A stretch of 64,000 nt of DNA from assembly GCF_046105845.1 (NCBI RefSeq), contig NZ_CP151004.1. One strand, written 5' to 3'. Both the position numbers and the translations under genes were made by a program. Positions 20,705 through 23,692 of the stretch are shown piece after piece. The notes beneath the pieces are model-generated. The model made no database searches. It was not told where the DNA came from and was given only the letters and a program-made list of their open reading frames with translations. This DNA comes from Escherichia coli. Its GTDB lineage: Bacteria; Pseudomonadota; Gammaproteobacteria; Enterobacterales; Enterobacteriaceae. Numbering within the stretch: position 1 is the first letter of the stretch; every line of letters begins with the position of its first letter.

Positions 20705-20734
20705 CTTGACCGTTTTACTCCAACTCCCTATAGT
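20705..20734 (+). promoter_or_regulatory. Candidate sigma-70 promoter for serW (cttgac-N18-tatagt, GC-rich discriminator)
   Basis: -35/-10-like hexamers about 45 nt upstream of the tRNA; discriminator gcgcccc is typical of stringently controlled stable-RNA promoters. Confidence 0.45.
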
Positions 20735-20777: not shown

Positions 20778-20865
20778 GGTGAGGTGTCCGAGTGGCTGAA
20801 GGAGCACGCCTGGAAAGTGTGTATACGGCAACGTATCGGGGGTTCGAATCCCCCCCTCACCGCCA
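20778..20865 (+). tRNA. serW: tRNA-Ser (anticodon GGA), 88 nt with long variable arm, encoded CCA
   Basis: Acceptor stem GGTGAGG/CCTCACC, anticodon loop cuGGAaa, T-arm gggggttcgaatccccc, genomic CCA end. Confidence 0.95.
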
Positions 20866-20875
20866 TATTCAAAGA

Positions 20876-20908
20876 AGAGTTCGTACGAAAGTGCGAGCTT
20901 TTTTTTCG
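20876..20908 (+). terminator. Rho-independent terminator after serW
   Basis: Hairpin gttcgtac-gaaa-gtgcgagc (two G-U pairs) followed by T8. Confidence 0.6.
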
Positions 20909-21025
20909 CATATTGCACTCCAGGGGGGATGAGAAGCCCCGACCGGGGTTCGACAACTGGCGCAGCCAGTTGGACAGACCACGAACACAGTGAGTGGGCT
21001 GCCCGCAGGGCGAGCGAAGCGAGTC

Positions 21026-21088
21026 AATCCCCCCTCACCGCCATATTTAAAGAAAAGCTCGTACGAAAGTACGAGTTTTTTTTCGCAT
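21026..21088 (+). repeat. Direct duplicate of serW 3' end (last ~21 nt) plus its terminator
   Basis: aatcccccctcaccgccatat...gtacgaaagtacgag-T8 repeats 20847..20917 with a few substitutions; period about 179 bp. Confidence 0.7.
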
Positions 21089-21321
21089 TTTATCTGCCTG
21101 TACGGCAGTGAACGGTATAAAAATCGAGTTTTTCTTTCGGTTGGCTTTCTAAGCTGCCTGTACGGCAGTGAACTCAAATACTACACGTTTAGTCCGTTAT
21201 TAATAAAGCAAAACCATCTCATTTTCCTGCTGCCACCCTTTTTTATTCTTACCTTCCAGCACCATTAATTATCAACAACTTACCTTCACCTCCAAAAATA
21301 GGGTTTTCACCGCCCCAGCCT

Positions 21322-21385: not shown

Positions 21386-23662
21386 TTAATGCGCTGCTTC
21401 CGCCTTGTGCTTTTGTGCACTCTGGAATCCATAAGTCAGCTCATTTTTCTCTTTATCCAGCGCAACCGTCACCTGACCGCCGTCCACCAGCGAACCAAAC
21501 AACAGTTCGTTGGCGAGCGGTTTTTTCAGGTTGTCCTGGATGACACGCGCCATCGGACGTGCGCCCATTGCCCGGTCGTAACCTTTCTCGGCCAGCCAGT
21601 TACGCGCTTCCTGGCTCACTTCCAGAGAAACACCTTTCTGATCCAACTGAACCTGCAACTCGACGATGAATTTATCCACTACCTGATGGATCACGTCGGT
21701 GGAGAGATGATCGAACCAGATAATGTTGTCGAGACGGTTACGAAACTCCGGCGTAAAGATCTTCTTGATCTCTTCCATCGCATCGGTACTGTTGTCCTGG
21801 TGGATAAGACCAATCGATTTACGCTCAGTTTCTCGTACCCCAGCGTTGGTGGTCATCACCAATACCACGTTACGGAAGTCCGCTTTGCGTCCGTTGTTAT
21901 CGGTCAGCGTACCGTTGTCCATCACCTGCAACAGAATATTGAACACGTCCGGGTGCGCTTTCTCGATTTCGTCCAGCAGCAGCACCGCATGTGGATGCTT
22001 GATGACCGCATCAGTCAGCAAACCGCCCTGATCAAAACCAACGTATCCCGGAGGCGCACCAATAAGACGGCTGACGGTATGGCGTTCCATATACTCGGAC
22101 ATATCAAAGCGCAGAAGCTCAATGCCCAACGCTTTCGAAAGCTGTACCGTCACCTCTGTTTTCCCGACCCCGGTAGGGCCGGCAAACAGGAACGAACCAA
22201 CCGGTTTATGTTCGTGACCTAAACCTGCACGCGCCATCTTAATGGCTTCAGTCAGCGCCTCAATGGCTTTATCCTGACCGAAGACCAGCATTTTCAGGCG
22301 ATCGCCGAGGTTTTTCAGGGTATCGCGGTCACTCTGCGAAACACTCTTCTCTGGAATGCGCGCAATACGGGCCACCACGGACTCAATATCCGCCACATTA
22401 ACGGTTTTCTTGCGTTTGCTTACCGGCATCAGGCGTGCGCGAGCGCCCGCTTCGTCGATAACGTCAATGGCTTTATCCGGCAGATGACGATCGTTAATGT
22501 ATTTCACCGCCAGCTCTACCGCTGCACGCACCGCTTTTGCGGTATAACGCACGTCGTGGTGCGCTTCATACTTCGGTTTCAGGCCATTGATGATTTGAAC
22601 AGTTTCTTCGATCGACGGTTCAGTAATATCAATTTTCTGGAAGCGACGCGCCAGAGCACGGTCTTTCTCGAAAATGTTGCTGAACTCCTGATAGGTTGTC
22701 GAACCAATTACGCGAATTTTACCGCTGGAGAGCAGCGGTTTGATCAGGTTAGCCGCATCGACCTGGCCACCAGACGCTGCACCTGCACCGATAATGGTGT
22801 GGATCTCATCAATAAACAGGATGCTGTTAGTATCCTGCTCCAGCTGCTTGAGCAACGCTTTAAAACGTTTTTCAAAGTCGCCGCGATATTTAGTGCCCGC
22901 TAACAGAGAACCGATATCGAGAGAGTAAATCGTACAGTCAGCCATCACTTCCGGCACATCGCCCTGAACAATTCGCCAGGCAAGACCTTCCGCAATCGCG
23001 GTTTTACCGACACCAGACTCCCCCACCAGCAGCGGGTTGTTTTTACGGCGACGGCAGAGAACCTGAATAGCACGCTCCAGCTCCTTCTCACGACCAATCA
23101 GTGGGTCGATTCCGCCCACACGCGCAAGCTGATTCAGGTTCGTCGTGAAATTCTCCATACGTTCCTCCCCACCAGCTTGTTCTTCGCTGTTTGGCTGGCT
23201 GCCAGGATCAGAAGACTGTGTCGGCTCGTCTTTACGCGTGCCATGAGAGATAAAGTTCACCACATCGAGACGGCTGACTTCATGTTTACGCAACAGATAT
23301 GCCGCCTGCGACTCCTGTTCGCTAAAAATAGCGACCAGAACGTTTGCACCGGTAACCTCATTGCGACCGGAGGACTGGACATGGAAGACCGCACGTTGCA
23401 GTACACGCTGAAAACTCAGCGTCGGCTGTGTGTCGCGCTCCTCTTCACTGGCAGGCAGAACGGGTGTGGTTTGTTCAATAAAGGCTTCCAGTTCCTGACG
23501 GAGCGCAACCAAATCCACAGAACACGCTTCCAGCGCCTCCCGGGCAGATGGGTTACTGAGCAGCGCCAGTAACAAGTGCTCGACGGTCATAAACTCATGA
23601 CGGTGCTCGCGCGCTCTGGCGAAAGCCATATTTAAACTGAGTTCCAGTTCTTGATTGAGCAT
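21386..23662 (-). CDS. clpA: ATP-dependent Clp protease ATPase subunit ClpA
   Basis: ORF 21386..23677; start at internal ATG gives [19 protein letters not shown]..., 758 aa; two AAA+ modules ([16 protein letters not shown]). Confidence 0.95.
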
Positions 23663-23692
23663 AGGCACCTCCCCCAATTTTTATGCCTGCAT

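Follow-up and report, generated by a model that had tools for sequence, protein, structure and literature searches.

A known RtT RNA repeat unit behind the tRNA-Ser(GGA) gene serW of Escherichia coli

The tRNA-Ser genes serW and serX of E. coli are targets of genomic islands. OI-43 and OI-48 lie between perfect 14-bp repeats that correspond to the final 14 bp of serW/serX and have an integrase of the P4 family, and their precise excision gives back an intact serW; the 14-bp repeat is printed there in reverse complement to CCCCCTCACCGCCA, namely TGGCGGTGAGGGGG (PMC3064760).

A second described system is the RtT RNA (Rfam RF00391) of the tyrT operon. K-12 has one plus three 178-bp units at tyrT/tyrV, each ending in a tRNA-Tyr 3' end, and the rttR annotation starts 7 nt past tyrV and ends exactly one 178-bp period on, at the repeated CCA. 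The K-12 serX gene (between ghrA and ycdU), a paralogue of serW, has four RtT units of 181 bp downstream. The tyrT RtT RNA was reportedly proposed by Bosl and Kersten in 1991 to be a modulator of the stringent response. This proposed link is echoed by a 2024 preprint. Our literature search found no description of RtT at serX or serW, although the element at serW is already known and annotated as such (RtT, RF00391) in RefSeq genomes.

The DNA analysed here, referred to as the window, is a 64,000-nucleotide stretch of an E. coli chromosome. It contains a single tRNA gene, a tRNA-Ser(GGA) at 20778-20865 on the plus strand, which its position between infA, upstream, and clpA, downstream, identifies as serW. 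An earlier note on this DNA had read the doubled 3' end of this gene as an att-site-like scar. We find instead that the feature is one known RtT repeat unit behind serW. The features of the locus are as follows.

20706..20734, plus strand: promoter-like site of serW, TTGACC-17-TATAGT (consensus scan, 10/12 matches; predicted function)
20778..20865, plus strand: tRNA-Ser(GGA) gene serW (ARAGORN; Rfam tRNA, 53.8 bits; RefSeq annotation in matching genomes)
20847..20914, plus strand: repeat copy 1, from the final ~19 nt of serW through the trailer and the terminator hairpin with its U-run, with CGCAT at its end
20852..20865, plus strand: genuine 14-bp attB core CCCCCTCACCGCCA of serW/serX islands (island junctions, alignment, PMC3064760)
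20871..20906, plus strand: terminator-like hairpin 1 with U8 (-19.0 kcal/mol, z-score -6.3; predicted termination)
20909..21043, plus strand: RtT RNA element (Rfam RF00391, 48.6 bits)
~20915-21025, plus strand: RtT core
21026-21043, plus strand: tRNA-derived 3' end of the RtT element, terminating in CCA
21026..21091, plus strand: repeat copy 2, from the RtT-borne tRNA 3' end through the trailer and the terminator hairpin with its U-run
21030..21043, plus strand: second 14-bp core, RtT-borne (alignment)
21050..21083, plus strand: terminator-like hairpin 2 with U8 (-18.1 kcal/mol)
21086-21113 and 21146-21173, minus strand: CRISPR-DR4 matches of a two-repeat type I-F array just past copy 2 (Rfam scan)
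21386-23677, minus strand: clpA, the downstream neighbour of serW

The repeat pair and the RtT unit at serW

The earlier note was right that the tRNA-Ser 3' end and its terminator occur twice in direct orientation. A repeat search of the window returned direct repeats at 20851-20905 and 21029-21083 (55 nt, 91% identity, spacing 178), and local alignment lengthened the pair to 20851-20914 versus 21029-21091 with 58/64 identical positions and one 1-nt gap; overall, the repeated segment measures ~64-67 nt. The alignment score of 47.5 lies far above that of 200 shuffles of the 900-nt region (mean 9.3, maximum 14), which excludes chance. Copy 1 starts in the T-loop/T-stem of serW, as follows from the placement of the tRNA gene by ARAGORN and Rfam, and the copy starts of 20847 and 21026 claimed previously hold once the preceding AAT(C) is counted in. 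Each copy contains a hairpin followed by a U-run. The perfect stem of copy 2 does contrast with the two G-U pairs of copy 1, as had been remarked, but the difference is energetically trivial (-18.1 versus -19.0 kcal/mol). As hairpin 2 lies between an A-run and a T-run, it may be active as a terminator in both directions.

The spacer between the copies is G+C-rich, again as described. The RtT covariance model RF00391 matches over its full length (1-130/130) at 20909-21043 on the plus strand, with 48.6 bits against a gathering threshold of 45, and this match spans both the 'spacer' and the tRNA-derived start of copy 2. The unit is co-oriented with serW, lies directly downstream of it and ends in AAUCCCCCCUCACCGCCA at 21026-21043. 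In strain MEI003, which over this region is 99.6% identical to the window, RefSeq annotates an 'RtT sRNA' between tRNA-Ser and clpA, and the same label is found at the serW locus of other near-identical strains. The feature thus combines what marks members of this family: a score above gathering, a tRNA-adjacent position with a copy of CCA, a variable tandem of ~178 bp and a covarying structure. Taken as a whole, we are highly confident in an account in which an RtT unit lies downstream of serW, together with the steps of copy-number change, RNA processing and history proposed below.

Three parts make up the 178-bp unit: the final ~19 nt of the tRNA, ~49 nt (to 20914) that hold the trailer and the terminator-like hairpin with its U-run, and a G+C-rich core of ~110 nt. 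Because each unit closes with a further tRNA 3' end, n units display n + 1 copies of the tRNA end and terminator; the window has one unit and therefore two visible copies. The earlier note had suggested an alignment with the serW-clpA region of K-12 and other strains. When this interval was cut at every ATCCCCC in five genomes, there were no units in K-12, one in the window, one in DG343-1, two in 2013C-4991 and three in SL124, with a period of 177-179 bp. The suspicion that the serW-clpA spacer is longer here than in K-12 was therefore well founded, K-12 being short of exactly one 178-bp unit. The single K-12 terminator (...TTTTTTTTCGCAT) runs straight into the CRISPR terminal repeat, as copy 2 does in the window, where it abuts a degenerate terminal CRISPR repeat at the exact position of the single K-12 copy. 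The unit number would most likely change when the ~65-nt repeats recombine unequally or slip during replication.

To survey the species, a junction-specific megablast query was used, of which a K-12-type serW or any serX locus covers less than 80%, with hits counted at 80% coverage or more. An RtT unit was present at serW in at least 946 of 5,426 complete E. coli genomes (~17%), a lower bound since genomes with an island in serW are left uncounted. The carriers apparently include an E. coli B derivative (H80). There are two serW haplotypes: that of the window, with diverged copies, and that of 2013C-4991, with homogeneous multi-copy arrays. In two further genomes (H119 and H121) matches end just past the first terminator; these are without an island, as their serW-clpA interval is as short as that of K-12. 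The unit at serW is thus a natural presence/absence and copy-number polymorphism and provides isogenic-like material for testing the role of RtT RNA, decades after its first description.

The only insertion seen inside an RtT array was an IS200/IS605 element: E. coli isolate 362 has a tnpA of this family in its serW array (L009:2399-2857), between the annotated RtT unit and the clpA-proximal repeat.

Genuine islands at serW and the att-scar reading

That serW serves as an integrase target, as the earlier note supposed, is borne out by OI-43 and islands of the SRL-PAI type (PMC3064760) and by an island of ~80 kb in strain 300033. The proposed scar would make the two copies the attL and attR of a lost serW island or prophage, with ~110 bp of element DNA left behind. 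Several facts speak for such a reading: serW is a bona fide integration site, with a tyrosine-integrase island in 300033; the left end of this same island adjoins tRNA-Ser in O157:H7, O145, O104:H4 and E2348/69; OI-43 and OI-48 have been described at serW/serX (PMC3064760); and the 14-bp att core is contained in both repeat copies.

Comparison with a real island nevertheless separates the two structures. The attL of strain 300033 is an intact serW followed by island DNA, while its attR reads ...caggcgg|TCCCCCTCACCGCCA| and then continues into the native trailer/terminator, the RtT core and copy 2. The island repeat is therefore ~14 nt long and ends at CCA, and the island lies outside the repeat pair, to the left of copy 1 and beside an intact RtT unit. 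The repeat in the window is of ~64-67 nt and extends ~49 nt (20866-20914) beyond CCA, terminator included. Like OI-43, OI-48, SpLE1 and SRL-PAI, whose integrases are of the P4 family, the serW unit shows a direct duplication of the tRNA-Ser 3' end with the 14-bp core in both copies; unlike them, it is not a 14-bp repeat around tens of kilobases and an integrase with precise excision, but a repeat of 64-67 nt around a structured-RNA core of 110 nt that varies in tandem copy number. The DNA between the copies is an RtT element scoring above gathering in Rfam, not island debris, and it occurs as 0-3 tandem units at a constant period. Excision of such islands is, moreover, precise and leaves an intact serW with no scar (PMC3064760).

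The island of strain 300033 is a pathogenicity island between 14-nt direct repeats (L016:18562 to L014:4015). Its cargo comprises afa-type fimbrial genes, iro remnants, Ag43 and a type I RM system with DarTG; the tyrosine integrase lies at the clpA-proximal end, and to the right of the island follow the RtT unit and a CRISPR array of four repeats.

The search for strains with a full island between the two repeats, which the earlier note had put forward, found none. A chimeric query joining the end of the RtT core, the tRNA end and the one island left end tested was matched at 80% coverage in none of the 5,426 genomes; islands with this left end always adjoin the genuine tRNA, and no use of the RtT-borne 14-bp core (21030..21043) as an att site was detected among these genomes. 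Nor did the suggested comparison of the spacer with mobile elements point to such an origin: the RtT core had no match among 50,697 phage records and matched 15 'plasmid' records, mostly chromosome-sized or mislabelled. On the strength of the real serW island, the OI-43/48 literature, the chimeric-junction search and the phage and plasmid searches, we rejected the att-scar reading, which we consider extremely improbable. Of the two origins that had been offered, an island remnant falls away, while a small local duplication comes near the truth, the unit being a tandem repeat; the RtT unit is independent of the att repeats of islands.

For annotation, the lesson is that a duplicated tRNA 3' end alone is no proof of integration, because RtT arrays produce exactly that signature; at serW and serX they also adjoin a real att site.

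Relatives, RNA structure and a model of expression

The serW unit resembles the RtT of rttR/tyrT in its full-length match to the model, its 178-bp tandem period, its ending in the 3' end of the host tRNA including CCA, its motifs (GAUGAGAA...CGA...GGUUCGA...CCCG.AGGGCGA) and its closing-helix architecture. It differs in its host, which is tRNA-Ser(GGA) rather than tRNA-Tyr, and the tRNA-derived and complementary segments are consequently G/C here and not A/U. The serW trailer also contains an intrinsic-terminator-like hairpin that the tyrT units do not have, and the serW unit is without a tpr-like ORF.

The serX arrays of K-12 and many Enterobacteriaceae are closer, sharing the host tRNA sequence, trailer, terminator, core and the RefSeq label RtT sRNA. 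Differences lie in the period (181 bp at serX, 178 bp at serW), in ~8% divergence with signature substitutions that are partly compensatory, in distribution (near-universal for serX arrays, ~17% of E. coli genomes for the serW unit), and in the distal end, which is within the next core at serX and at CGCAT beside the CRISPR4 terminal repeat at serW. The two loci are homologous from the promoter, whose region is conserved between them, through the terminator to TTTTTTTTCG(C/T)AT. This makes the terminator part of the ancestral tRNA-Ser(GGA) unit, not element-borne.

A pattern scan of species-representative genomes gave at least 179 matches at at least 120 loci. The host genes among the matches listed were almost exclusively tRNA-Tyr(GTA) and tRNA-Ser(GGA), and variable core positions followed the host, being CTT...AAGGTTCG behind Tyr and CCC...GGGGTTCG behind Ser among these matches.

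RtT-like units were also seen outside Enterobacterales or behind other tRNAs (L038:10395, L045:7256-7392, L122:1369, L030/L092/L135 and L101). Those behind tRNA-Tyr in Marinobacterium and Sedimenticola scored 44-51 bits in Rfam (gathering 45), one behind tRNA-Cys in a Pseudomonadota MAG had a sub-threshold 36 bits, and units behind tRNA-Asn (Opitutaceae MAG) and tRNA-Asp (Kangiella MAG) were recognized by eye. The T-stem segments match the unit's own host tRNA in each.

The RtT RNA is predicted to fold into a multibranch structure whose closing helix pairs GGGGGGAU, a 5' G-run, with the tRNA-derived AUCCCCCC; a predicted second helix uses a copy of the T-stem 5' strand and T-loop, GGGGUUCGA. 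RNAalifold was run on 78 units that were selected by pattern, which biases the columns of the conserved motifs. At two pairs the closing helix P1 is A-U in the 43 Tyr units and G-C in the 35 Ser units, P2 is U-A or C-G according to host type, and double-sided changes occur in 8/17 pairs; Ser-type units additionally show compensatory changes in the inner P3/P4 hairpins. Given the host-tracking of the cores together with this covariation, the element is a selected structured RNA and not debris.

Expression of the core would hinge on read-through, as a strong terminator-like hairpin with U8 sits between serW and the core. By analogy with rttR, transcription from the serW promoter (20706-20734) through hairpin 1 would yield an RNA of ~171 nt (roughly 20873-21043), trimmed at its 3' end to the tRNA-like CCA at 21043 by tRNA-processing nucleases. 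The same analogy suggests that it would be released as a discrete RNA from the tRNA operon transcript.

We tentatively raise one wider reading, to which we give rather less than even credence: that RtT units are not a quirk of the tyrT operon but a widespread class of structured RNAs derived from tRNA 3' halves and co-adapted to whichever tRNA precedes them. It is suggested by the closing and second helices, which are complementary or identical to the T-arm of the host tRNA. The hosts may comprise tRNA-Tyr, tRNA-Ser(GGA) and, more tentatively, tRNA-Cys, tRNA-Asn and tRNA-Asp, in taxa that may be as far apart as Marinobacterium, Sedimenticola, Kangiella and Opitutaceae. If true, RtT RNAs would function by mimicking or engaging the acceptor/T-arm end of the host tRNA, and might for instance act as decoys or sensors during tRNA processing, CCA maintenance or stringent signalling; the serW copy would be a dispensable, polymorphic instance fit for testing that function. 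Such co-adaptation across tRNA identities and taxa is the sole lead here that may go beyond documented knowledge; if undocumented so far, it offers a concrete structural hypothesis.

History of the serW unit and its neighbourhood

A recent origin within the genome by ectopic gene conversion, in which the serX RtT array was copied into serW by means of the tRNA/terminator homology arms, has the necessary substrates: the serW and serX genes are identical, their promoters and terminators are homologous, and serX RtT arrays are present in K-12 and in MEI003, the strain nearly identical to the window. Yet the serW unit of the window shares only ~92% identity with the serX units of these two strains, with fixed indels (178 versus 181 bp) and signature substitutions, whereas its identity to serW units from unrelated strains is 96.6%, these being 99-100% identical among themselves, and each type is 96.6-100% conserved across strains. 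The same serW signatures mark the two units that each of Citrobacter sp. R56 and Citrobacter sp. Awk 4 has at serW-clpA. Given this divergence and these locus-specific signatures we rejected a recent copy from the serX of the same genome, which is very unlikely; an ancient conversion event from serX to serW is possible.

By these comparisons the serW-type unit is a distinct, old lineage, older than E. coli and common to the serW loci of Citrobacter. Its age and its sharing with Citrobacter favour loss over a recent gain here, and we hold with moderate confidence that absence from K-12 and most E. coli more likely reflects loss. Acquisition of the whole serW-clpA region by homologous recombination from another lineage or species, for instance from Citrobacter-like DNA, would fit the patchy spread (~17% of genomes), the two distinct serW haplotypes and the standing of the region as a hotspot of recombination and CRISPR-Cas exchange (PMC3903273). 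The flanking sequence is ordinary E. coli, however, and we regard this route as possible but on the unlikely side. It bears on history alone; the identity of the element as an RtT unit is unchanged by it.

Other identities for the DNA between the copies were tried and rejected. It does not belong to the CRISPR4 array or its leader (locus nomenclature from PMC3903273), since the CRISPR-DR4 matches, both on the minus strand, cover 21086-21113 and 21146-21173 and K-12 has the same terminator/CRISPR junction without an RtT unit. A hammerhead-like ribozyme, brought to mind by a GAUGAG...CGA motif, had no Rfam ribozyme match in a scan at E-value threshold, and the motif is put down to tandem G-A (PMC7657543). 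Protein coding was dismissed, the ORFs across the region being judged spurious from context.

RefSeq has a 132-aa 'hypothetical protein', WP_012602745.1, over the RtT core, terminator copy and CRISPR array (L004:591-989; also H72, H73 and H117), which is probably a spurious ORF.

The array next to copy 2 is an orphan type I-F array (CRISPR4.1-2, 21086-21173, minus strand) in which a single spacer (21114-21145) separates a perfect repeat from a degenerate terminal one. At 30/32 positions this spacer agrees with csy3 from a strain that has cas genes, and the K-12 spacer at the same position matches cas1f, also at 30/32. An 'anti-cas spacer' situation was reportedly described by Almendros et al. 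in 2016, and we take the cas-matching spacers of the window and K-12 to be instances of it. E. coli PA45B, which has I-F cas genes, is arranged as infA, CRISPR4.2, serW, cas6f...cas1f, CRISPR4.1 and clpA (L011:2304-12260); its serW, inside the CRISPR-Cas locus, has a T-stem variant (CCGGGGTTCGAATCCCCG) and no RtT unit. The origin of the cas-less arrangement is not obvious, as a simple repeat-to-repeat deletion of cas would take serW as well.

PA45B (L011:15793-24537) and EH41 (L013:15576-24225) also carry a P4-like satellite prophage just past clpS; the window lacks it. The PA45B prophage has genes for capsid, head decoration protein, small terminase, primase, an Icd-like protein and an integrase; in EH41 there is no integrase within the stretch L013:15576-24225. 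Finally, a 'tRNA-OTHER' on a 105-kb E. coli plasmid (NZ_AP027855.1:29534-29635; H40/H130) matches the 3' part of serW plus the terminator at 93% identity.
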